Below, piece after piece: positions 1,302 through 15,974 of a DNA stretch of 64,000 nt; the first letter of the stretch is position 1, and every line of letters begins with the position of its first letter. This DNA is from Tricharina praecox (taxonomy: Eukaryota). A program made the position numbers and the translations under genes. Below the pieces are notes generated by a model. The model did no database searches. It saw only the letters and a program-made list of their open reading frames with translations, and was not told where the DNA came from. The stretch is from positions 1,054,001 to 1,118,000 of the forward strand of contig NW_026250413.1 in the NCBI RefSeq assembly GCF_024521635.1, given 5' to 3'.

Positions 1302-4035
1302 TGGTGTTATGTGTGTGAGAACGAGTGCTTCGGGGTTTTCTGGTCTCTGGAAGCTTTTTGAAAACCGAAGCTCGTTAGCTGATGTGCATATCCAGGTGAC
1401 AAGCAAACAAAAATGGAGTATGGATGATGGTGGGTGATACGACAGGCAGCAGTGGAACTAGCATGCGGATAATCGGATCCTTCACATACCACGCCGGCCG
1501 TGGGAGGAAGAAGCTTGGTATCATTAGGAAGGAGGAAGATGGATATGACACTTGGTACGCACCCCGATCGTCGCCTAGGTCTTTGACGTAGATGCCGTAA
1601 GTGACTTCGAAGATTAGCTCAGAGTTGCTACTTCGTCGATGGGCCGGAGCAAGCTGGAGGGACGAAAAAGGCTGGATGGTTCAAATCCTCGAATATGGGG
1701 TGATTCGGAGCATTCGAAGACGACGGACGAGGTTCCATTCTTAAACATATCCCCTCCGGCAGGATTGCTACCTCGAGGGGAGAGGTGGGCGAACTTTACC
1801 AATTGTGGCACGATAGGGCTAGTATACAAGAGTGTTCAATCGTCTATGGGCCTCTTTCACCTCACATTTTCACAATCAAACCGCGAGGAACGACAGCCCA
1901 GATCGTAAAAGGCGGTTCAGAATAGGGCTTGCTTATGGCGACTTAAAGAGCATTCTACTGCAGCCGCACATAGGTACATAGCAGAACTCTGGAAGCCGAG
2001 CTGTCGTAATTTCCTTCCGGACTGCTTCTATGCGGTCCAAATCCCGCACACCGTGCCTGTAGTGTCGAAAGTGCTTCATTACTCGTCACCAAGGTGCGCT
2101 AAACGGTAGTCTTAGAGGCTGAAATTTTGTCGACACTGCCAAATTCCCACGCAAACCAAACGCTCAAATGATAGCTTCCAGCCTCCGCGACCCTCGGCCA
2201 TTTCTCCGAGCTGTCCAAAGCCTTTTCACCGCGTGCAAATCGTTATGGCTGATGTTTTCCCCTACGATCCGGGGGGTGGGGCGTTGGAAAACGGCGCCGG
2301 TGTATTGCATTGTGATGTCGATGTGGTCATCCCAGGCTCAATCTAGAATATCTCTTCTGACGCCGTCATGGTTTGTCCGGTCCAAATGGACAATATCCCG
2401 CCCATGCGTATCCAGAAGTTACCCAAATCCAGGCATTCGATTTCACCCATCCTCGTATCCATAACGGCTCGGGACAGGACAGAATCAGAGACACATACGC
2501 ATCATCATCCATCCGGCACGTCAGTCCCAAGTCCCCCATATTCGACATCGCAGCACGACCGACAATAATGGGCTTAGCTCGGACGAAGATGATGAGTGCC
2601 TGCCCATAAGGCTCTGGGTGTTAAAGCCAAGGGTTCGAACCACTGGGACGGACTAATGTTGGCCCCCGAGAGTCCAGATTGTTGTTCATTTGGGGGAGGG
2701 GGGGGCAATCCAATATCGAGGCTGACAGGCAGCAAAGCTTGGGGGGGGGGGGATGTGTGGCGGGAATGTGCATGGGAGAGAACTTCCCGAGTTGCACTCG
2801 ATAGAGTTCGATGAGGGGAGGGCTATATGCGATGAAAGACGTAGTCGCCCCGAGCGGGGGGCGTACGGGGCGTACGGGGGCGTACGGGCATGGCGGCGGC
2901 ACGGGCAACGGCCGCAGTCGAAGCAGAAATCCCTGCCGATGCGTGGAAGCCCTCAGCATTTCTAGGAATCCAGATCGAGACGCGGAGTGTTCGGACATGA
3001 TAGATGATCCGCAATCAGCCAGTGTCACGGTTGATTTATGATGGCCACGCGGGTAGCACGGTGGCTGTGGGACGAGGTCGAGAAAGTGTGAGTCGGACGC
3101 ATGTGGTGGGCGGGTAGTGCTCAGCCTGATCATGTACCCGATCAACCAAAAACGATGCCGGCCATCTGCTTCGGGAACAAGGTGGTCGGGAAGGTACTCC
3201 GCCTTTTCTGCCGGTAGTCCCTAGAATCGGCAAACGGATAGTTGCTAGCGAGCCACGAAGTTGTCGGGAGATCGGGGGATTCGTGACTCGCCTTTGCCCG
3301 CAGAAGACTTGGGATGTAGAGTACATACATGGAAACATGTCCCCTGTTTCCACGTCGCCTAGAGTAGCTTTGGTTGGGCCCGCTGAGCGCTAGCATACCT
3401 ATTGTGGTTGCGATGGCGCATGATACAAGCGCAAGCAACAGCGATGAGCACCGAGCAGGCGCCGCTTACCCTCGTCGAGTGCTGGCTGACTGGCTGGCTG
3501 GCATTCCAGTGAGCACGTATCTGAGAAATGAGCCATATGTATTGCCACGATTCCCGCGGAGATATGCACCGATGCTTTTTCCACCCCCTGCGGCGAGAGT
3601 GCGGCGGCCAAGGTTAGCGGCACAAATAAGCATATGAGACGCAGCTCGCAAACCACACAACTGCCCTTGGCGTGCGACGACGACGTACCTTGCCGCCACA
3701 AGCCACACACGGCCTCGTCCGTACATGACGCCTGTAGGACGGACGATGCGAGGGAGAGAGGGATGGATGTCTGCAGCCAGCAAACGGGAGTGGTTGACCG
3801 CTCTTCCCTGACGGCGAGAGGGTTTAAACCTTAGGCTGGCCGAATATCACCATATCGATCGTGTTTCGCTGGGATTGGGCAGCGGGTCGGCTAGGAACAT
3901 TCGACCGGTCTTTTACTCGGAAAAAAAGTTAGGCCGGCCACCGTCCATCGGCCCACCGTCCATCGGCTTGGACTGGCCCGTGACAGCTGAAGTCTCTTTG
4001 CGTTCTGGTTATGTTTTATTGAAAGCACAATTGTC

Positions 4036-4154
4036 AGCTACGGTCATAGAACCATGAACACACGGCTTCCCGTCCGCTCAGCCCTAGTTAAGCATGGTAT
4101 CGCCAGGTTAGTACTGCAGTGGGTGACCATGCGGGAATCCCTGGTACCGTAGTT
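4036..4154 (+). rRNA. 5S: 5S rRNA gene (dispersed copy)
   Basis: About 119 nt. Terminal helix AGCTACGGT/ACCGTAGTT, ACCATG/CATGGT and CCAGG/CCTGG helices, conserved CCCGTCCGCTC, AGTTAAGC, GTTAGTA and GGGTGACC...GGGAATCC segments. A Pol III T5 terminator follows at 4153-4157. Confidence 0.95.
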
Positions 4155-4588
4155 TTTAACCTTTGTCTCTCGATGTCTGTCTGATCTTTTTGTTGTTCCC
4201 GAGCATTTTCATATTACTTGAGAGAGTACGAGGAAAAGGAGGAAAGGCGCAGGAGGCTATGTATCCAGCAGAAGACCTGCTGCTTCGAAATCACCTGCAA
4301 TGACTCGCAGTGACTCTCGACTGCCAACTGTTGACTACCGACCATATATGACGCTATATTCCCTCGACCGCTGCTTATCCTTCTTTACAAAGAAAGCCTC
4401 CATCAAAGCACAAATGTATGGCCCGATGCAATTAAACCAATACGATAGAAAATAGACAAACTCAAATCACCATTCTCCGTTGGCCTGTTGAGTATACTGT
4501 ATCGGCGAACAAAACACACCGAGTATCATCCGCCCAAATACGGACAAACAACTAATGAACGAAGAACTCAGGCCTTGCCAAAAAAAAC

Positions 4589-5078
4589 CTACTCATCCCC
4601 ATCCTCGGCTACCACTTCCTTCGCCTTAACCTTCTCTGCCATAAAATCCTCTCCCTCCTCCTCCCCCTCCTCCTCCTCCACCACAGGCTTCGGCTTCGGC
4701 TTTCGGACTCTCTTCTTGGACGCTGGCGTCGGCGAGACGCTACCTTCGTCGGAGCCTTTCCTCTTGACGGGCGTCTTCTTGGGCGTCTTCTTTGGCGTCG
4801 TGGCCGCCGGGGTGGTGGTGCCGGCGGGGTTCATAGCCGCCTTGTAACGCGTCCAACGCAGGCGCGCGGCGGCGGCCGTGGAAATGTTGTTCTCTGCGGC
4901 GATGAGATTCCAATCGAGCTAATAGGTATGGTGTTAGTTTGGGGGCATATATAGTATGATGGTTGATGGGTGAGCGAGCGGAGAAAAAGCGGTTGCTGCG
5001 TACTTTGGTCGTGTCCACCTGCGAGAGGATCATGTATAGGAAGCGTTCGGCTCCGGAGGCATCGCAGCGGGCTGGCAT
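4589..5078 (-). CDS. Small Myb/SANT-like domain protein A (134 aa), TPKK-rich basic tail and acidic C-terminus
   Basis: join(5078..5004,4918..4589); intron GTACGC...CTAAC...TAG. Spliced protein: MPARCDASGAERFLYMILSQVDTTK/LDWNLIAAENNISTAAAARLRWTRYKAAMNP...TTPKKTPKKTPVKRK...EEEEGEEEGE. Confidence 0.85.
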
Positions 5079-6693
5079 GGTTGCGTTTGGTCGATATAGG
5101 GATGCGGGGATGGGGGGATAGAAACAGGCTCGGTAGAAGTGCGGGGGCTATCTGGAGTGGGGATATTTTTTTCTTGTAGTGAGGGGTGTGTCGGGTGGAG
5201 ATGAGATGGGGGAGGTGGAGCGGTGAGGTGGACTATTATATGTCCTTTATTCTCTGCACATCCCTTTTTTTGCTAAGGCGAAGTGATGTGTTACTCTGCG
5301 TAGCTTCTGGAACAAATTCATCTATTGGCATCCGGGTAGTGAGCTCCTGTGTCTTCGCTCAGCTCCAACGACTCGCCCCTAGAACGCATCCCTCGCAACA
5401 CCCACTCCGCCAGATCCGCAGCACCTGGATTACCGGCAGCCACGGATGACGCAGAGATATTCAATTTTCGCCAGTTTGGAGATACTTTAGAGTAGGCAAG
5501 GAATGTTATCGAGGGGCTCACGACAATCTCCATGCACTTGCTGACATCTGTGAGGAGTATGGTGTCGGAACTACGGAGCGATGTCGAGATCAAGGGGCCG
5601 TCTGTTGACAGGACGGAAAGCAGGAATGTTACAGTTTTCTCGAGGCTGATGCAGCCCTTGGGAATGTAACTGGATCCGATCCATGTTTTGTGCCGCATAG
5701 CATCTGGCTCATTCCCTATCCGCTGGGGAGCCGGCATATTCCCAAAGAGCTCGAGGGCACCCTCGGCTGATCTGGTCGAGTATAATCTACACCTGAGGCT
5801 ACGTTGGATACTAGCCCGAGTTGTAGCAAGATTGTGTTCTCTTTTCGTCCTTTCCCGTCAAACTGCCTTTCGTCATTTTTCCGAGGTGCCGGCCGCCGCA
5901 CCATCTTCTCGACCGCACAAGAGCACATGCATGGTAACAAACAGCAATGAACCATTCAATATTTCCCCCTCGTACATACAGTGATGACACTGGGGATGCA
6001 ATAAGATGTGGAGTCCTGGGGAAAGAACCGCCGCCGAAATGCCCTTTCCATGGCGGCACTGTCGCAAAATGTCACTCGAGTGTTTCGGCCATGGTGGGAA
6101 AACACGGGCCTTCACTGTTTTTCCTACAGTTTTGAGGCTAAAGCCTTCTTCCTCTGGACCAGACATACCTACAATACTGTGCGTTCACCGATTCCAACAT
6201 CCTCTTAGTTTAGAAAGTCGAGTGACATAATATGAGGGGCTTCATCGCGTCGAGCTAGGTATATTTTCCTCGGATTGGTTAGATAACACTTAGTGCATTG
6301 GGCCGTGGATGTAATTTAAGGGAAGGGTAGGGAGGGGCGAGTAGAAGGAAAGCAAACATGCCCCAGACTCGCCATGGTTCTCGAAGTTCATGGTAGGTAT
6401 CGATATAGGATATAGTCTCCCGGTAGTGCACGCTGGATCCAAGTTGCTCCAACCTGGAGGAATGCAGGTTACATAAAGCTCTGAATCCCCCAGCCCGCTT
6501 CGCACAGTACATCCCCCACCAACAGCTTCTTCTCTCTGGTGGACATTCCGGTCTCAAAATCTCCGAATCTATCCGCATCCCCGAACTCAACCCCAGACAA
6601 GTCAAGTTAAAGTAACCGCACCACCTTTCCCCCCCCCCCCCCCCCCCCTAACCTCCCTCACTAACCGCATCCTAGATTCAACAGCTCACCACG

Positions 6694-7032
6694 ATGGTAA
6701 CCTGGAACCACCAAGCCGACGCCCGCCTGTTGTGGTCGATCATCACCACCACCGGCGTGAAGCTCGACAACGCCTTGATTGCCGAAACCTTCGGCATGGG
6801 CGTCACACCGAAGGCAATCCAAAACCGGATCCACAAACTCAAGCAGATGGCCACCGTTTTGTTGACATCAGAGGCAGAGGGCGGTGAGGACGACTCGCCG
6901 CCACCAATTGTAAGGATGAAGGCACGGAAGGTTCTCAAGGGAGGGTCTAAGACGGACGGGGAAACCGGCAAGAAGGCTACCGAAGAGAGCTCGAACATTG
7001 GGACTCAGGAAGCTAGCGACGGGGAGGAATAG
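6694..7032 (+). CDS. Small Myb/SANT-like domain protein B (112 aa)
   Basis: MVTWNHQADARLLWSIITTTGVKLDNALIAETFGMGVTPKAIQNRIHKLKQMA plus a charged tail. A probable 5'UTR intron (GTAACC...poly-C...CTAAC...TAG) lies at about 6612-6675. Confidence 0.85.
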   Translation: MVTWNHQADARLLWSIITTTGVKLDNALIAETFGMGVTPKAIQNRIHKLKQMATVLLTSEAEGGEDDSPPPIVRMKARKVLKGGSKTDGETGKKATEESSNIGTQEASDGEE

Positions 7033-8749
7033 CGTGGAAATGGTATGGAATCTTGGAGCTTTGAATATGTGTTCATATGTGTGGGGTTTTCCGAAGAATG
7101 ATATGCATATGTACGGTGGGATCGCGAAGAAAGGGTGTGGTGGGAAGAAGGATGCGAATTTGAAGACAGAGGACATGGTTTGGGTTCGGACGAGTATCCA
7201 AGTGCTTAGCCACCTCGACAGAGGCATTTTTACTGATGTTCAGTCTCAATATGGATGCATTTACATGTTTTTTGTTTTTGTGTGCAAGAATGGAAGTGCT
7301 AGTACTTTTGATCATGTACTTCTTACTTATCCACAAGCATAGTCTGGACAAACAGGTGTATTAGTCGATAGGATACATTTGTGTTTGTTAATCATTGATT
7401 GCATGCGACCTACTTAGCTAGATCCTGGAAATATACTCACATACTCCATTCCCACGCCGCTGTCCAACCCGACTTTCATCGAGCGGCCCGATGGGTTGAT
7501 CGCGAGTGATATCTATGATTATGTGACGGTAAGTCTAAATGTCGTTCTGCCTGTTGCCCACGAACCTAAGGCCTTTGAATCAATACTGCTGGCCACACCC
7601 AAGGCCGCATCACATGGCTCACTACATTAGTCGTACACAGAGTGCCGTTTGCCGCCCACAAACGGGAGGTGAACTCTGTTCGGTCCAGTTTTCCGAGTTG
7701 CGCTACACATAAACCCTTGTTCCATCACGCGATAGGAGCGTCGAAGTTGGGTTTGTTCAGCAACTGGAAAAAACAGCGGGTGCAGTCCGCACATACTAGA
7801 TCGATGCGTGGGTATTTGGACAGCCACCCTGTTAGTACCACTGTCTGCCAGAATACCCACGCAATCACCTAAGAAGCCAGCCTTGAGCTACATAATTTCC
7901 TTAAAGATTCGGGTATGTACAACGTGTGTCACGATGCTACAACGTGCAACAATTCAGCAAACGGCGGGTAGCACAACATGACAGCAAGCCGAGTGGCCCG
8001 AGTCATGGGAAGAAGACTCGGAATTTGGAAGCGTAAGGAGAATACCTAGGCCGGATGTGTGCCTGTGACTCTCTATGTGATGCCACGTTTTCCCAGCTTC
8101 CGAACAGTCTCGCGCCAGGAAACCACAGCTTCTCTCTCCTGCACATCTGTCACGACTCCGATTCAGTCTCCAACAGGCGGCTTGGTGAGCCCTGCGCTCT
8201 CGTGCCTAGGGGCTATTCCCGTCAGCTAGTTCTTAATAATCGCACGCGAAAGTGCAGAGGGCTATGAACATTCCAGGGGAGCTGGAGGGGTAGAGGGGCT
8301 CATGGCTTCTGGATGCTAACCGCATCATGAGGCTGACAGGAAGCATAAAGGGTACCATAGTTCGCTTTTCCCTCAAGGCTTCTAAGGGTTCTTTTGGGCA
8401 CAAGACTACCGCTATCCTCAACAAACCGTATATATTCCATTACTCTGCTCCTTATTTAAGAATTCCCCAGGCTGACGATAATCTCAGGCAATCGAATCAA
8501 CTACCCCCAAATTTTCAAACGCCTACCACTCACTTCTACTGCGTATGTTTCATTACTTCGCTCTACTCAGAGCTGGGCTGATAGCGCTCCCTGGATCCCC
8601 GGTACAGCCAATAGTTTTTGGTCGAGCAGTGAAACCTTCCGCTAAAGAGCTATTTCAACTGCATATTGTTCGCTCTCCATTTATCTACCCCCACTCCTTC
8701 TCACTTCTGATTAAAGATTCTGGGCTTAGTAAACTCTACCGAGATCAAC

Positions 8750-9358
8750 ATGGTTGCTCCCCCCACCTGGACGGCCGAAAGGCGTCAACGCCTTATCGCC
8801 GCCACCTTCGCCGCCCACCCCGAGTTCAAACCCGTAAATACCCTCCCCCCTTCTCGGCCCCTTACATCACTAGGTATCTACAAGCTCATCGAAATCACTC
8901 AGAACATTCCGAAGATTGCAGAGATATTTGGGGAAAACTTTACCCCAGGTTCCCTTCGACATCAGTTTTTCGCCATTAGATGTGCGGCTCGTGATCTTCT
9001 GAAGGAGGGTGAAGTCGCACCTAGCCCCCCCGAGACACCAAAGAGGAGGGGGGCGAGGAAGGCTGTGGACAGCCAGACCTCTACTCCGGTCAAGAAACGG
9101 ACCGGAGTTCCCTCAACGCCTACTAGCATCGCGAAGAGGAAGAAAGTCGGCAATAAGAGGGACGTGGTTGATCAGGATGGCGAAGAGATGGAGGGTTATT
9201 GGTCGGCCAAGAGCACGCCTTCCGAGGAAGTGCTATCGAAGGTAAAGGAGGGTGCGATAGGAATTGAGAAGTTGGAGGGGAGCAAAGGGGAGTTGGAAAG
9301 AAGCGAAGGGGAGAGGGAGTTTACTGAGGATGTTGGGGAAAGTGAACGGGGAGAGTGA
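8750..9358 (+). CDS. Small Myb/SANT-like domain protein C (179 aa spliced)
   Basis: join(8750..8833,8903..9358); 69 nt in-frame intron GTAAAT...CAG. Protein: MVAPPTWTAERRQRLIAATFAAHPEFKP/NIPKIAEIFGENFTPGSLRHQFFAIRCAA, tail with ETPKRRG, STPVKKR, AKRKK and an acidic end. Confidence 0.8.
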   Translation: MVAPPTWTAERRQRLIAATFAAHPEFKPVNTLPPSRPLTSLGIYKLIEITQNIPKIAEIFGENFTPGSLRHQFFAIRCAARDLLKEGEVAPSPPETPKRRGARKAVDSQTSTPVKKRTGVPSTPTSIAKRKKVGNKRDVVDQDGEEMEGYWSAKSTPSEEVLSKVKEGAIGIEKLEGSKGELERSEGEREFTEDVGESERGE

Positions 9359-9820
9359 AGGCATATCCTGAGGAGTATCGTGAGAATATTGTAACCATGT
9401 GTGCCCACGGATTGTGCTATTAATATCATTTGTCATTGGTTCACCCGATCGTTTTCAATAGTCGACGAGCGAGCGTACGCATGTTCCGGAGTAAAGCGCA
9501 TATATTCCGCGACAGTGTGCCGGACTTTAGGATTACTCCAGAAACAATGGCTGGAGTATCAATCACAGCCACGATATGGACACCTGCATGCATGTTCCCG
9601 TCCCCGCCGCAGGCCGCAATGATTGATTGTCTCCTTCCCGCCGTTTCCAAAGAACAAACAACCGCGCCGTGCCCGTTAAACATACACTTGGACCGCACCC
9701 CCAGATCTCTCCCACCAGCCCACACGCCACCATTCCCACCATCTACCTACCACCAACCTACGTTCAGAATCCGCACATATTCATCCCTCAACCTATTTCC
9801 GGACAATTCGAAACATCATC

Positions 9821-10491
9821 ATGCCTAAAGTCGTAAGTATCTCCGACGCTCCCATGGAGGGAGGGAGGGAGGGGATGGGCGGACGAACTGGAGGGGGCTA
9901 ATGGTGGACGGGGGGTGAAAGGTTTGGACTCCCGAGAACGACCGCAAACTCCTGATCCGCCTCATCGAGCGCTCAGCGAAGGCGTACGATACTGTGGAGC
10001 TGGCGAAACTGTTTGCTGGTATGGATTTGCGGGATATAAACCCGGCAAACTTGCTGACCGGGAATTCTACAGGTGCCACTCCCAAGGCTATCGAGGAACG
10101 CATCGCGAAGCTGAAGCGCGAGGCGAAGGCTGCCGATGGCGGCAGCGGCAGCGGCAATGGCGGCGGCGGCGGTGGCGGTAATGGTGTTGGTGTTGGTGGT
10201 GGTGGTGGTGGCGGCGGCGGCAACACGGGATCGGATACGGCTGCGGACTATTCCGCTTCTCCGAGTACCTTCCCCAGTGGAAGGAAGATTGCTGGGATGA
10301 AAAGGAAGCGCACGGACGGCGGAGGAAGTAGGGCAGCAAGAAAGAAGAAGGACAAGCTCATTAGCGTGGATGAGGAGGATGACGAGGAGACCAAGTGCGA
10401 CATCACTTCTATGGGAATGTTGAAGATTGAAGACGGCACGTTGGGTGGCGCAAAGGGAAAGGGGGGGCTGTTGAATCAAGATATGAAGTGA
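9821..10491 (+). CDS. Small Myb/SANT-like domain protein D (175 aa), Gly-rich linker
   Basis: join(9821..9832,9922..10018,10073..10491); introns GTAAGT..GCTAAT..AAG and GTATGG..GCTGAC..CAG. Protein: MPKV/VWTPENDRKLLIRLIERSAKAYDTVELAKLFA/GATPKAIEERIAKLKREA...MKRKR...RKKK...EEDDEE. Confidence 0.85.
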
Positions 10492-11058
10492 AGCACCAGG
10501 GGCAGGGATGGATAGAATGGACGTTCTAGAAGAACGCCTGGAAGATTGAGGGCTATTTTTACTCTTGTTTGCTGAGTTTCATCTACCATTGGAGAGTTTG
10601 ATGTGACGATTTTATTTCTCTATTCTGCACCCACTTCTTCCTTCCATAAGCCCTGCCGATTCGGAGATTGTTGCACTACATTCCTCCGTCGTATTCTTTG
10701 CATTCCACAGCCTTGCGGAATTGTCAACAATCAACCGTCCACTGAAGCTAAACCTGAACCATCCTCCATGATCGAAAGTCCGCGTCGGTTCATCCACGAA
10801 GGGAAACATTCCCGTGCACGTCCTTTCGAGTTGCCATCCGTCCACGTTCTATAAACTCTCTCCCGGCGGGTTTCCGGAGGAGGAGACCAACCATTCAGTT
10901 CACATCCCGTCGCCGCCGAGCCAGATGCAGAATCATCACCGCCGCGTAGGCCCCATATATCCCTCCTCTCCTGTCCAGTCGGCCGCTCCTCCTCTGCCCG
11001 ATAAAGTCCCCCACCTCACCTACCAGGCAAGAGCATGTCCCTCCCAGAGCCCACAAAA

Positions 11059-11493
11059 ATGAAGTGGGACGGTAACCCCCCACCCTCCACTCCTCCCTCC
11101 CCCCGTTCACGGGCATAGCTTACATCCGCCACAGCAACCGCCGACCAAAAGCTGCTTCTCGCGATCCTATCCGTGCACAAAGTGACGATCGACTACGCGT
11201 CGGTATCAGCGATCGTGGGGTGCACGCCGCGCGCGTGCGAAGAGCGCCTAAAAAAGCTCCGGAAGCTCTCCGGGACCGGGTCTCCAGCGGCAAAGAGGCA
11301 GGTGGTCGTCAAGGATGAGGAGGACCCCAGGAGGCGTGTGGCAAAGACCGAATTCTCAATGGCTCGCACCAGGGAGGGCGTCGAGATTCCGCTCGGCGTG
11401 CCGCTCGAGATCAGTCAGATGCCCGTGGTCAATGGATGGTTTGAGGAGGAGATTTTGGACCAGGAGAGATTGTGTGGGATTTGGGATGAGTGA
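11059..11493 (+). CDS. Small Myb/SANT-like domain protein E (123 aa)
   Basis: join(11059..11071,11135..11493); intron GTAACC...GCTTAC...CAG. Protein: MKWD/ATADQKLLLAILSVHKVTIDYASVSAIVGCTPRACEERLKKLRKLSG. Confidence 0.85.
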
Positions 11494-11756
11494 GCGGGTT
11501 TGAAGGGGGACTATGCGTCGATTGGGTGGTGGGTTTACTCGCGGGTGGGTTGGTAATGGGGGATATGTACAAGATTTCTAGAGGCGGATTGGATTGGATT
11601 GTATTGGCTAGTATGTTCGAGTATGAATGTATGACGCTCTCGTCTCTTCACAGATCTTTACCTCTACTCGTACTAAAACATACACCGTGGGTGAATGAGA
11701 GAGGAAATATTTGCTATAAAACCACCGGAGAAATACCAAGGATACCCCCACACCGA

Positions 11757-14227
11757 CTAAAATTGCGCCTGTAACACCTTCTTCAACGAGACCATCTGGG
11801 CCTCTGCATCCTCCACTTTCCTCTGGCTCTTGTCGATCTTGCCAACTAGCCAATCAACTCTCCGCCCACTCTTCTTCTCGCACGCAGCAAGAGCCTGAAG
11901 CTCCTCCTCACACTTTTTGATATCGACGGTCTCGGCCTTCACCACCGCCTTGAGACTGACCATATCCATTTTCGCCTTCAACACCTCATCCTTCAGCAGC
12001 CGTTCGAACGCCGCGCGGTACACCGGCTTGCCCGGCTTAATGGCGTAAGGCCGGCCGTGCTTGTTGATGATGCTGACCATTTCGGCCTGCTCGAGTGCCT
12101 GCACGGCGTCTTCTCCGCCCGAGGACTTGAAGAAGTCGTGGAGGAGGACTTCGTTGTAGCGGAGGGAGTCCTCCGAGGTGAGTCGCTTGACGAGATACCA
12201 GGCCTGCTCGGGTGTCCACTTCCGCTTCGCGACCTCGGAGCCGTCAAGGAAGTAGAGCTTCAGGATCTCGGAGGCGGAGTTGAGGATAATTTCGTGGACG
12301 GCTTGGTGCGGGGTTTCGCCGGCCTTGATCCGCCGGGAGAGGAATTCGAGGTCGGTCAGACGGCCGCCGAGCGCGACAATGCTTTCGTCAAGCTCCTTCA
12401 TCAGTTTTTCATCCTTCTTTATGTGGTCACTTTGACCATCGAGGTGGTAGAGAACGTAGCGTTTCGCGCTTTCGGGTTTCGCATCGCCAAGGAAGACGGT
12501 GCGGAAGACGCGGTCGGGCAGAGATTTGGCAAGGGATTTCTGGAAGCCAATGTCGTTCGTGAGGAAGATCACATGTGCGACGTTGGAGGAGACAAGGAGT
12601 GCTGCCCAATCGGCAAGTTTGTCGTAGATCACGCTGTGGCCATCGTGATGGAGAAAGTTGTCGATTACGACGATTGGCCGGAGTTGCGGGTTTGCCGACA
12701 GATACTCGTCGTCGGACATGGCTTTGTCACGCTCGGTTTCATATTTGTGCGCCAGCGCGACGGTCTTGAGAGCTACACCTGTGTTCTGGAGGATCTTGTT
12801 GAATTGGTTCTCAAGGGTCTGGGAAAAGCCTGCGGTGGTTCCGATAGTTCCCTGGGCTGCGAGGTCTAGGAGGCTGCTGATAGTGTTGAGCCACGAGAAC
12901 ACCGGGCGATATCCAACCTGCAATGCTGCGGCGGCGATGGTGGCCGAGTCTCCATGTGCCTCGTTGATGGGTTCGCAGTCGATAAGCAGGACGTTCTTCC
13001 GGTCTCTCAGAATGCTGTCCATAATTAACTCGCGCTTTCCGGATCCACGAGGACCCTGAACGACGATGAAGGTCTCCTCCGACTCTTGTAGCCAGCCATT
13101 GATCCGCTCGACCGCGCCCTTCCGCTCCTCCCATAGCGCAGAGAGATCCTCCAACTCCTGTTCCCTCTTGAACACGAACCGGTCTACGGTATTCTTCTTT
13201 ACCCATCCCCAGTACTCGTTCTCGGAGAAATGCAGCGAGCGAGTGATCTTCGCATGGATGAAGAACGTCCTGACCGGATCAAAAATCCAGACAGCGATGA
13301 CACTGACGAGCGCCGCCAGAATCGGCAACACAATCCTAGGATGGTTCATCATCCAATCGCGGAAATAATGCGGCTTCATCCCGCGCTCATACAGGATCCT
13401 GAGCGTAACACCGCCCTCTTTCCCCGCAATCGCCGCAATCTCGGGTACCACAAACCCATGCAAACAATTCCTCGCACTGGTTGCGCCCCTCATGCGCAGG
13501 AACTGAATGATCGCAAACCTCGGTTCCTTGCCCCCGGGCGGGGTGATGGTGATGTCCGCGATCTTCCCATACCGCCGGAACAGCGCATACAGCGCTTCCT
13601 GGCTCAACTCCTTCCCCTCCACGAACTCCACTTTAAGCCGCGTGCTCGGGAAGCGATATAGATCCTCCAGCCAGGGCTTCCCGCGAACCAGGAAGGACCG
13701 CACGTTCGAAAGTGGCGCGAACCAAGGCTTCACCCGCGTCTCCTTCAAGAATGCTTGTACTACGTCTTCGATTCGCGCCGGGTCGGGCGAGATGAATTTG
13801 AGGAATGCTCCGCCGTCTTTCTTCCGCGGAATAACCCCCGTGATTTGGAAGTCTGGAGAATCCCACAGGTCCGCCGGAAGACATTGGCTCTTGATCCGCG
13901 AGTCGATTGACTTGCTGTCGTAGTGCATCGCCAGGTATCGGATATCGTAGAGCGCCGTCTTGAGTGGAAAGACATCTATGCGTGGGGAGGGCGTCGATTA
14001 GCGATGGGAAGTTCTGTTCTGGGCAGCGTGAGCTACTGACTGTCGAAATACAACAGCGATTCCTCGGGTGTTTTGTCGATGAAGCCCGTCTTGTCCGCGC
14101 CGACGGTGCTTGTGGGACGGCGGAACGGAGGTCGTGCGAACGCGAGCGGGGATGGTCGCAGAGCGTACGAGTGGAAGCGCATATGGGATGCCCCTGCGCA
14201 TTGCGAGGCCTTGAGAAAACGATTCAT
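11757..14227 (-). CDS. YME2: Mitochondrial escape protein 2 (Yme2/Rna12; RRM + TM + P-loop domain)
   Basis: join(14227..14041,13975..11757). Arg/Ser-rich presequence, spliced LLYFD/NVFPLK, KPWLEDL, RRM (QEALYALFRRYGKI), NHPRIVLPILAAL TM segment, VQGPRGSGK, VVIDNFLH, LGGRLTDLE. Confidence 0.95.
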
Positions 14228-14582
14228 GATGAAGATGATCTCTCCACGGAGGGAGCGGGGAAGAGATGGATTCTCTCTTTCGAAGTGTGCGTTGTTGCAT
14301 CTACCTCCAGTTCTGCTTGATTGCCGCTGAAGACCCGCCAATGACGTCGGCCGCTAGCTAGCGAGCTGCCAAGAGTGTCAGGCAAGCCCCCCCATTCATC
14401 CTCGTACTCAACCGCGAGGAACATTTCTATGATCATCCCCAGTTACCTGTTCACCTTCACCGACCGTCTCACCACTCTCGAAACATCGATCGAACGAAAC
14501 GAAATAACCTCCCCGCGAATTGCGCTAAAAAACGAGAATCCAGACCCTCCACACCGCACACGTACCAACCACATCACGCAAC
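14228..14582. promoter_or_regulatory. Short (~355 bp) bidirectional promoter between YME2 and LIN1
   Basis: Head-to-head start codons at 14227(-) and 14583(+); promoter role inferred from geometry only. Confidence 0.5.
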
Positions 14583-15974
14583 ATGCCGCGCCCCAAGCGT
14601 CCCGCGCACCCGATATCCCACAGCGCCGACGCGCTGAACCGCTCTGGGGCTGGGCTCGCGCCCTCAAAGCGTCCCAAATTCGACGCGCGCAACCCCCACC
14701 TAGTAGCACCGGATGCGCCGGAGGACGAGACCGACATATTCCTCGAGGTGGACGAGGGGGCGATCGGCAAGCGGCGGGTGCACCGGAATGCAGTTGAGCT
14801 GGAGGGCTACGAGACGGATTCGTCCGAGGAGGGGTTCAATGCGACGCGGAAGGGGTGGGCGAAGGCTGAGGGGAAGAAGAAGGCCAATAAGGATGTGGAT
14901 GATGAGGATGATGATATGTTTGGTGGGGATGGGGATGAGGACGAGAGCGATGAACTCGAGAAAGATGAGGACCGTGGAGGGATCGGAAAGAAGAACAAGA
15001 ATGTCAAGTTTTTGGATCTGGACGATATCGAGGGACAGGAGGAGGAGGGCGTTACGGAGGCATTACCGGTGCCGCAGCGGTTTCCGGATATCTTCAAGGA
15101 CGAGCGTCAGGATGAGTCCGAGTCCAGCGAGGACGAGGAGAAGCTCGCAGAGGAAGGGATAGACGAGGAGATTGGAGCCGGAGGACGAAAATCCCACGCG
15201 CCAAAGAGAGAGGCTTTCAACATGAAGAATGAAATGGAAGAGGGCCGTGTCGACACCACCGGAAATTTCATTCGCAAGGCAGCCGAGAAAGACGCGATTC
15301 ACGATAGCTGGTTAGCGGGCATCAGTCGCAAGGATATGAAGAAGGCGAAAGAGGCTATGGAGAAGCGAGAAGTCGAGCGCAGGGAGCAGATGCGACGCGA
15401 CGACGAGATAATGACAAGCGAGGTTCTCTCGCAACTGATCACTTACCTGGACCGCGGCGAAAGCATCCTGGAAGCACTGGCGCGACTCGGAGGAAAGAAG
15501 AAGCCCGACGCCAACAAAAACAAGAATCGGTGGCGGCAGAAGAAGAAGGAGGCAACAGCTATGGATGAGATGCAGATCGACAAGAAGAAAGGCAAAGAAG
15601 CAGAAGATCCGACGGAGGTGCGGAGGAAAGAGATGGTCGAGAAGATCACCGAGGCTGCAGATATACTTCTCACTCGCGGCCAGCCAGAAGTCTATGATGA
15701 AACAAGGGAGAGTCTCATGAGGCAGTACAAGCGGGAGACCGGGGACGACTGGGAAGACCCAAAGCCAGCGGAGGGGGAGGGTGGCGATGTGTTAGCGGAT
15801 ACGAGGCAGTGGGAGTACAGATGGACGGATGGAAGGGACGACGGCTCTACGTATGGACCGTACGGTAATGCGGAGATGAAGAGTTGGAACGAGCATGGCT
15901 TTTTTGGTGAAGGAGTCGAATTCAAGCTCGTGGACGGGATTGAGGGGTGGACCAGAGCGCCGGGCTTTATTTAG
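14583..15974 (+). CDS. LIN1: U5 snRNP 52K / CD2BP2-like GYF-domain protein
   Basis: 463 aa intronless ORF. EAFNMKNEMEEGRVDTTGNFIR...HDSWL, ESILEALARLG, EKITEAADILL, and a C-terminal GYF domain (WEYRW...YGPYGNAEMKSWNEHGFF). Confidence 0.9.
   Translation: MPRPKRPAHPISHSADALNRSGAGLAPSKRPKFDARNPHLVAPDAPEDETDIFLEVDEGAIGKRRVHRNAVELEGYETDSSEEGFNATRKGWAKAEGKKKANKDVDDEDDDMFGGDGDEDESDELEKDEDRGGIGKKNKNVKFLDLDDIEGQEEEGVTEALPVPQRFPDIFKDERQDESESSEDEEKLAEEGIDEEIGAGGRKSHAPKREAFNMKNEMEEGRVDTTGNFIRKAAEKDAIHDSWLAGISRKDMKKAKEAMEKREVERREQMRRDDEIMTSEVLSQLITYLDRGESILEALARLGGKKKPDANKNKNRWRQKKKEATAMDEMQIDKKKGKEAEDPTEVRRKEMVEKITEAADILLTRGQPEVYDETRESLMRQYKRETGDDWEDPKPAEGEGGDVLADTRQWEYRWTDGRDDGSTYGPYGNAEMKSWNEHGFFGEGVEFKLVDGIEGWTRAPGFI

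Follow-up and report, generated by a model that had tools for sequence, protein, structure and literature searches.

Five small Myb-like genes of Tricharina praecox belong to a tandem array conserved across lineages of Pezizomycetes

A 64-kb stretch of DNA from Tricharina praecox (Pezizales), referred to here as the window, contains between positions 4589 and 11493 five small genes, which we have designated A to E. Positions 4000-12500 were read and their splice sites tested, yielding models in which A, C, D and E are spliced, every intron runs from GT to AG and every reading frame closes. An earlier interpretation of this DNA, made from the letters alone and called here the sequence-only reading, had described five genes of 112-179 amino acids (aa), four of them spliced, and its coordinates, sizes and domain strings match the rebuilt models. 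Each protein starts with a three-helix domain of about 55 aa and continues into a disordered tail, which is first basic and then acidic. Judged from sequence comparison, A-E are five paralogous genes in an ancient tandem array, which already existed, with this gene order and with B-E running head to tail, before the Pyronemataceae-like and Tuberaceae-like lineages separated.

The exons and the flanking genes are collected in Table 1. The protein of gene A corresponds to NCBI BZA05DRAFT_444896 (134 aa). In the case of gene C, the joined exons of the 5' untranslated region (UTR) contain no ATG before 8750, and the gene has in total three introns for 179 codons. Gene D begins with MPKVVWT, which is also the start of the D orthologues of Rhizina, Maublancomyces and Pyronema, and gene E encodes 131 aa, or 123 aa when counted from the conserved MKWD. 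The NCBI model BZA05DRAFT_473900 (279 aa) joins D to exon 2 of E after ...KIEDGTL, within 9821-11493 of the window, and uses for this a weak GTGGCG donor in the D tail. This fusion is probably wrong, and D and E two separate genes, since the E orthologues found elsewhere are separate proteins starting with MKWD, since the C-terminus and the stop codon of D are conserved in a relative (locus L001, from a metagenome), and since an RNA-derived contig, 10737-11033, sits inside the supposed intron.

This contig comes from X1, a small run whose RNA label was guessed and six contigs of which are 100% identical to the window. One of them is spliced across the two GT..AG gaps of the C 5' UTR, and the run is therefore derived from RNA. 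Thus, gene C gives rise to a spliced transcript, and spliced transcripts, which the sequence-only reading had named among its tests, exist for at least this gene. The contig at 10737-11033 lies upstream of E, a further one (11183-11349) in E exon 2, and a third (10046-10127) covers part of D exon 3 together with 27 nt of the proposed intron 2. Another X1 contig of 160 nt (8184-8343, 100% identical) lies on the upstream side of C, about 140 bp from the first 5' UTR exon mapped for it; the C transcript may start further upstream, or a separate small transcript may exist there. Contigs from soil metatranscriptomes (X2-X4) were rejected as expression evidence, as they gave hundreds of low-complexity matches of 31-36 nt, all of them to the poly-C run 6619-6659 upstream of B.

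Table 1. Exons of genes A-E and flanking genes, in window coordinates
Feature	Position	Strand	Remarks
Gene A, exon 1	5004-5078	-	MPARCDASGAERFLYMILSQVDTTK; first helix of the domain
Gene A, exon 2 and stop codon	4589-4918	-	remaining domain, basic and acidic tail; protein of 134 aa
Gene B	6694-7032	+	intronless; 112 aa
Gene C, 5' UTR exons	8480-8542, 8608-8667, 8730-8749	+	one X1 contig, 100% identical
Gene C, UTR introns	8543-8607 (65 nt), 8668-8729 (62 nt)	+	GT..AG gaps bridged by one X1 contig
Gene C, coding exon 1	8750-8833	+	model; 179-aa protein together with exon 2
Gene C, coding exon 2 and stop codon	8903-9358	+	model; X1 contig over 9004-9159
Gene D, exon 1	9821-9832	+	encodes MPKV; protein of 175 aa
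Gene D, exon 2	9922-10018	+	helices 1-2; spliced form equals residues 5-36 of the NCBI fused model
Gene D, exon 3 and stop codon	10073-10491	+	helix 3, poly-Gly tract, basic and acidic tail
Gene E, exon 1	11035-11071	+	MSLPEPTKMKWD; conserved MKWD start at 11059
Gene E, exon 2 and stop codon	11135-11493	+	domain, tail, conserved C-terminal motif GVEIPLGVPLEIS
YME2/RNA12 gene	11757-13997	-	PF10443, 538 bits; flank of the array
GYF-domain (LIN1-like) gene	14529-15974		flank beyond YME2

The five proteins are related through their N-terminal domains, and unevenly so. By blastp, B and D are 38% identical over 63 aa (E 5e-9), B and E 32% identical (E 7e-8) and D and E likewise 32% (E 3e-7); A and C show weak domain matches to the other copies, their best pairwise matches falling partly in the low-complexity tails. 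A profile made from the five genes was run against all 1592 six-frame open reading frames (ORFs) of at least 25 aa in the window. Six ORFs matched, and these are exactly A-E (E ≤5e-8), the next-best ORF reaching E 1.2; the cluster is thus not a chance pattern, and the window holds no sixth copy. The common N-terminal pattern of about 50 aa proposed by the sequence-only reading is borne out by this single profile. That reading was also correct in finding no DNA similarity between the copies (the best pairwise blastn matches span 15-29 nt, at E of at least 0.002), different intron positions, and YME2 and LIN1 as the neighbours.

The domain family is one already known to Pfam, although uncharacterised, so that the word "undescribed", applied at first to the cluster, does not hold for the domain itself. 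Gene A exceeds the curated cut-off of 27 bits of PF22980 (Myb_DNA-bind_8) with 50.0 bits (E 1.8e-13, residues 10-54), and its exon 2 alone reaches 31.7 bits. According to the description given in the search output, PF22980 occurs mainly in Ascomycota; like A-E, its members are small proteins with a domain of about 50 aa at the extreme N-terminus and a charged tail. The remaining genes fall short of the cut-off: B scores 14.2 bits and the E orthologues 15-16 bits, E exon 2 of T. praecox and the D protein have no PF22980 match, the best Pfam match of D being a sub-threshold one to PF21227 (16.4 bits), and gene C has no Pfam match. The D and E subfamilies therefore lie outside the current model, and B, C, D and E are tied to A through the one common profile despite missing the PF22980 cut-off.

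A wider search, in which a seven-row profile of the domain was compared by HMMER with 1.84 billion representatives, returned 656 cluster representatives at E ≤0.001 and 82 at E ≤1e-10. Most relatives among the 150 matches listed have 75-300 aa, and in most of them the matched stretch starts at residues 1-10, the domain occupying residues 1-55 in nearly all. As 35 of 148 relatives match PF22980 at E ≤0.001, the Pfam model covers only part of the wider family. Named members are found in Pezizomycetes, Orbiliomycetes, Eurotiomycetes (Aspergillus, Exophiala, Nannizzia), Dothideomycetes, Leotiomycetes, several lichen-forming classes and Saitoella, and the annotations of Ascodesmis, Geopyxis and Morchella include B-like and C-like proteins. 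In the ESM-Atlas, the clusters closest to D and E (score 0.87-0.91) carry PF22980 on 25-60% of their members, which we take as a lead only. The B protein, used as a single query in a word-based search, matched itself only. Our literature search, whose broader queries covered result listings and the beginnings of abstracts, returned no paper on Myb_DNA-bind_8/PF22980 or on six member locus tags. A different, repeat-type architecture exists within the same family: some Leotiomycete relatives (P0049 from Phlyctema vagabunda, 539 aa, and P0101) carry the full N-terminal domain followed by several helix 2-helix 3 repeats, with the repeat unit G-x-x-x-T-x-x-A-[IV]-x-x-R-[FL]-x-[KR]-[IL]-K.

The array itself was surveyed in metagenome contigs with an alignment to D. 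The T. praecox proteins and the profile were mapped onto the 17 loci obtained, which include flanking DNA of at most 10 kb. The complete order A, B, C, D, E, with B-E on one strand, is present in seven of the 17 loci (L001, L002, L003, L006, L007, L009 and L010), which fall into four sequence groups resembling Pyronemataceae and Tuberaceae; in all four, order and orientation of B-E are kept, and the block stays within 3.6-5.4 kb. At five other loci (L004, L005, L008, L012, L014) contig ends cut the array and the expected part is present, L011 combines D and E with an A-like copy and one additional copy and is without a recognisable C, and L013 has D only. The YME2 proteins of L001, L002 and L008, 85-88% identical, place these loci near Tricharina, L003-L007 are Tuber-like (Tuber D 69-78% identical over about 225 aa), and L009 and L010 are Wilcoxina-like (Wilcoxina E 75% identical over 108 aa in L009). 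In two named genomes the locus tags of D and E are neighbours, namely in Rhizina undulata (003884/003883) and Maublancomyces gigas (005493/005492); the D and E entries of Tuber magnatum give one and the same length for the longest contig (626,469), and those of one JGI pair likewise agree in this length. Word-based searches yielded two sets of sharply conserved orthologues: all 12 foreign matches of one search are E-type, and the 33 matches of another comprise 20 D-type proteins, 11 E-type proteins and two of the window's own. Gene D is found also in Orbiliomycetes, with its domain nearly unchanged.

Two variants of the arrangement were encountered. The Wilcoxina-like loci have a sixth, intronless copy between B and C (L009 7864-8034; L010 7867-8037), which the tree described below places beside the D clade with weak support (73). 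L015-L017 represent a more distant lineage, in which the GYF protein is 46-54% identical and a looser group of copies lies near the GYF gene. There, in L015 (940-10051), L016 and L017, a D-like gene with the invariant helix 3 of D and diverged helices 1-2 is located 2.7 kb upstream of GYF, and C-like and B/E-like copies occur up to 9 kb further upstream. In view of this looser group, the linkage to GYF may be older than the compact array.

A maximum-likelihood tree (IQ-TREE, 55 profile columns; L004 and four very partial rows left out) groups the copies by type rather than by lineage. Bootstrap support is 100 for the D clade, which includes Arthrobotrys and Kalaharituber, 98 for the C clade, which includes Morchella, and 96 for the core E clade; clades consisting of the window and L001 are obtained for A (100) and B (97). 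The type-wise clades uphold the view of the sequence-only reading that the duplications are old, as does the finding that other lineages of Pezizomycetes have, in unchanged order, a positional orthologue of each of the five genes. Its expectation of one-to-one orthologues that stay clustered has tree support for C, D and E, whereas for A and B the tree provides it in L001 only. Compared with the respective copy in the window, the domains of the D orthologues are 79-100% identical, those of E 47-84%, those of C 39-49% and those of B 30-63%, the upper value for B being that of the L001 orthologue.

Intron positions follow the same division, as they differ among the paralogues, are specific to each type and are common to orthologues. 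The A intron lies after helix 1 at the same site in L001, L003, L007, L009 and L011, that is, in five lineage groups; the C intron splits the domain at the same column in L001, L003, L004, L007 and L009, and a Morchella protein (P0140) reads as the spliced form of C. In E the intron follows MKWD. The second intron of D is present in the Tricharina-like loci and absent from the Tuber-like ones, where the coding sequence continues through this site just as the spliced T. praecox model has it. Within the D tail, a GGC-rich tract (10128-10228) encodes a poly-Gly stretch that occurs also in L001; since it is absent from the D proteins of the Tuber-like loci, Rhizina and Orbilia, it is a lineage-specific low-complexity expansion.

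As their substitution patterns indicate, all five genes are under purifying selection, a result that the sequence-only reading had named among its tests. Ratios of nonsynonymous to synonymous substitution rates (dN/dS) in Tuber-like pairs (L003 vs L007, L003 vs L004) are 0.06-0.33 for all five genes, with 0.25-0.33 for B and 0.06-0.21 for C. Comparison of the window with L001 (Nei-Gojobori method, own script) gave for the D domain (54 codons) dN 0 at dS 0.61, for the E domain dN 0.16 and dS 1.05, for the A domain 0.23 and 0.84, and for the B domain 0.24 and 0.80 (dN/dS 0.30). The neighbouring genes gave, in the same comparison, dN 0.07 and dS 0.67 (YME2) and dN 0.10 and dS 0.78 (GYF), and dN in the tails was 0.29-0.55. 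The constraint on D is extreme: 34 of the first 55 columns are invariant over 11 D orthologues from Pezizomycetes and Orbiliomycetes, and a run of 19 residues, GATPKAIEERIAKLKREAK, is identical in 11 of 11.

Structure prediction agrees with a three-helix fold. The AlphaFold2 model of D, for which 148 relatives were used, has a mean predicted local distance difference test (pLDDT) score of 83.4 and helices at residues 8-21, 28-33 and 40-59 (long, short, long); the Wilcoxina E orthologue (P0044), modelled in place of T. praecox E because the database protein of the latter is without the first exon, has helices at 5-18, 25-32 and 36-52 with pLDDT 80-92. The tails are disordered in both, and in the E orthologue two short, low-confidence strands coincide with the conserved C-terminal motif. 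The weak structural neighbours are nearly all DNA-binding helix-turn-helix (HTH) proteins, of Myb/GARP type for D and homeodomains and sigma region 4 for E, and of the 43 weak Foldseek matches listed for the D model, 14 are Myb, GARP or SANT chains. All five domains are basic (isoelectric point, pI, 9.1-10.8), and a conserved T-P opens helix 3, which is rich in lysine and arginine. Four of the tails (A, C, D and E) have patches of KRKR/KKRK type that resemble nuclear localisation signals. At the very end the charge is reversed: the terminal 20-residue windows have a net charge of -2 to -9, except in D, which has a short basic end (+2). The C-terminal motif of E, GVEIPLGVPLEIS, corresponds to the pattern G-x-E-I-P-L-G-V-P-L-E-[IV], is confined to E-type proteins and was found in 16 of the proteins collected, including four that belong to the window itself or are fragments. 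The motif has the look of a docking peptide.

The label Myb/SANT-like, given by the sequence-only reading, has to be qualified in this regard. It agrees with the Pfam name and with the three predicted helices; on the other hand, the canonical Myb/SANT family PF00249 gave no match, either with the five exon translations at E up to 10 or with 11 of the proteins collected at E up to 1, and no significant three-dimensional match to a solved Myb was obtained. The canonical Myb/SANT core has three regularly spaced tryptophans or other aromatic residues. Like c-Myb R2R3, TRF1/TRF2 and the GARP proteins ARR1/PHR, A-E have three helices, with the HTH formed by helices 2 and 3, and B-E share the conserved aromatic residue of helix 1, a tryptophan that is absent in A. 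The array proteins differ in keeping only one of the three spaced tryptophans, the later positions being D-Y/W or aliphatic and, in helix 3, A/I/L, and in having a longer helix 3 of about 20 residues.

Taken as a whole, these data lead us to favour, with moderate confidence, the reading that A-E are an ancient, selectively kept row of small HTH genes, the products of which would bind DNA or chromatin in the nucleus. In such a model, each protein would enter the nucleus, helix 3 of its domain would contact DNA or nucleosomal DNA, and the charged tail might modulate this binding or recruit partners. The five paralogues would have become subfunctionalised and would play separate, non-redundant roles, which would explain the one-to-one retention of each gene.

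Several observations weigh against this reading. All genes but A are below Pfam's own threshold for PF22980, and we found no family member with a tested function, so that DNA binding is something we infer only. Foldseek gave no significant match, with best E values of 1.9 for D (ARR1 DNA-binding domain) and 0.85 for the E orthologue (Antennapedia), and comparison of the profile with the PDB sequences returned nothing significant either, the best Myb-type match being CEF1 (E 0.91), together with a LysR HTH (E 1.8). Since the B-position copies beyond L001 fail to group with B in the tree, the one-to-one orthology of B rests on position. For C, the proportion of nonsynonymous differences (pN) between the window and L001 is 0.39 in the domain and 0.39 in the tail, and that of synonymous differences (pS) is saturated (0.85); as the domain is thus no more conserved than the tail, constraint on C in the T. 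praecox lineage is not demonstrated by this pair. The X1 contig that reaches into intron 2 of D implies unspliced RNA or DNA in X1, and this small run has no contigs on A or B, which is no evidence of silence. Most of the surveyed loci have similar contig-name prefixes and possibly come from few sampling campaigns. Finally, in the Tuber-like and Wilcoxina-like loci a stretch of gene-poor DNA may separate the array from its YME2 and GYF neighbours, and the array may persist partly by inertia, given that synteny is generally well kept in this class: in PMC12581995, it is described as strongly conserved in Pezizomycetes, even between Tuber and Morchella, whose split lies beyond 200 million years, with transposons mainly stretching the syntenic blocks.

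The likeliest cause of the linkage is accordingly a tandem origin combined with slow change of gene order in the class; a shared regulatory neighbourhood may add to it, and selection for linkage, as suggested initially, is possible. At L003-L007 and L009-L011, no window ORF of at least 120 aa other than those of the array was found within 10 kb on either side of D, and in the Tuber-like and Wilcoxina-like loci E is followed by 8-9 kb of gene-poor DNA. Changed flanks were not counted as a sign of rearrangement around the array, as this gene-poor downstream DNA could hide the neighbours.

A closer association of the genes can also be envisaged, in which the five proteins, or at least D and E, form one heteromeric DNA- or nucleosome-binding complex or a co-regulated switch, and selection holds the array together by a shared regulatory domain or by conjoined D-E transcripts. 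The compactness of the B-E block next to so much gene-poor DNA, its constant order and orientation in four groups and the adjacency of D and E in two named genomes would fit such an arrangement, as would the frozen D domain (dN 0; 34 of 55 columns), which is what would be expected of a surface with several simultaneous partners, the conserved C-terminal peptide of E, which could be a docking site, and the NCBI model placing D and E in one mRNA. Nevertheless, we judge it unlikely. The five promoters have no common word, as no 7-9-mer occurs in at least four of the five upstream regions beyond shuffled controls, in T. praecox or in L001. Gene A is inverted together with a 5S gene in L001 and lies at a distance of 1.6-5 kb from B, so A does not depend on a strict arrangement; the separate E genes starting with MKWD, the conserved stop region of D and the RNA contig in the supposed intron contradict the fused D-E model. 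A weak further argument is that the Orbiliomycete D orthologues have no E-type match from the same genera among the representatives listed. An extended version of this idea, in which the genes encode the parts of one novel chromatin-binding module specific to early-diverging filamentous ascomycetes, seems to us decidedly improbable: D would be its frozen core, E would be the partner of D and dock through the G-x-E-I-P-L-G-V-P-L-E peptide, perhaps to HP1-type proteins as well, A-C would be interchangeable specificity subunits, and the head-to-tail row would be kept by a shared regulatory domain or by D-E read-through.

It is conceivable, too, although rather unlikely in our opinion, that the domain contacts protein instead of DNA. 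The products of A-E would then be interaction adaptors, the SANT-like domain binding histone tails or another protein and the acidic tails acting like a histone chaperone or a competitor, in the manner of small single-repeat plant MYBs, which titrate their partners. The proteins are indeed very small, have no second domain, end in acidic regions (except for D) and show no significant similarity to any DNA-bound Myb structure, and the LGVPL core of the E motif (11323-11361, E residues about 97-109) bears what we take to be a loose likeness to the PxVxL-type pentamer bound by HP1 chromoshadow domains. Helix 3 of SANT domains is, however, typically acidic, whereas the domains of A-E are all basic; the conserved T-P and the helix 3 rich in lysine and arginine fit a recognition helix, and the structural neighbours, weak as they are, point to DNA-binding HTH proteins. 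The notion that B and C, or their splice models, are non-functional and that the array consists of D and E plus relics would account for the failure of B to find a relative by word search, for the absence of a Pfam match for C and the fast evolution of its domain in T. praecox, and for the lack of RNA contigs on A or B, if this were taken as a sign of silence. It is very hard to reconcile with the fact that B and C have retained open frames in all lineage groups examined, with their low dN/dS values in the Tuber-like pairs and, for B, against L001, with the spliced 5' UTR in the transcript of C, or with the B-like and C-like proteins annotated in three other genera. An origin from a Harbinger-type transposon, with its Myb-like protein, was considered and dropped, as no transposase lies nearby and the one-to-one orthology and strong constraint argue for host genes.

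For the row of small HTH genes that we favour, two further systems offer a comparison. Plant single-repeat MYBs (the R3-MYBs CPC/TRY/ETC and the RADIALIS-like proteins) are proteins of about 100 aa with a single Myb-type domain, are sometimes encoded in tandem and compete for partners. They resemble the array in small size, single domain and possible tandem paralogues, a likeness that does not amount to homology; yet they are recent expansions with a recognisable PF00249 domain, whereas the fungal array consists of five deeply diverged types, each retained one to one. In organisation alone, Hox-type clusters are also similar, as ancient tandem paralogues with a three-helix domain of about 55-60 aa whose order and orientation are kept over deep splits. 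The array proteins are far smaller, and the homeodomain match of the E orthologue, although the top one in Foldseek, is not significant; unlike in Hox-type clusters, we have no evidence of collinear expression or shared enhancers for the array.

What is new here is the five-type paralogue array conserved over lineages of Pezizomycetes, together with the extreme constraint on D and the finding that the D and E subfamilies are missed by the current Pfam model. To our knowledge, fungi have few arrays of paralogous regulator-type genes that show deep conservation, and in this one five types whose domains are only 12-38% identical to one another in the window stay side by side across the sampled lineages. 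The 55 residues of the D domain have hardly changed between two fungal classes, which points to an important and unstudied function. From a practical point of view, the results identify a gap in the Pfam model for D and E and a T. praecox annotation that fuses two genes, and provide a small, concrete set of targets for experiments in tractable relatives.

Two minor features of the intergenic DNA complete the description of the locus. A dispersed 5S rRNA gene (4036-4155, plus strand; RF00001, 101.7 bits) is located 430 bp from the 3' end of gene A. Among six loci scanned, a 5S gene beside A was found only in L001, at 1676-1795 on the minus strand; it is 97.6% identical and is inverted with gene A as one block. 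Between B and C, at about 7378-7493, some 100 bp match several X1 contigs at 90-95%, with unrelated sequence on either side, and this stretch is probably a dispersed repeat of short length that is itself transcribed or forms part of transcripts from elsewhere.

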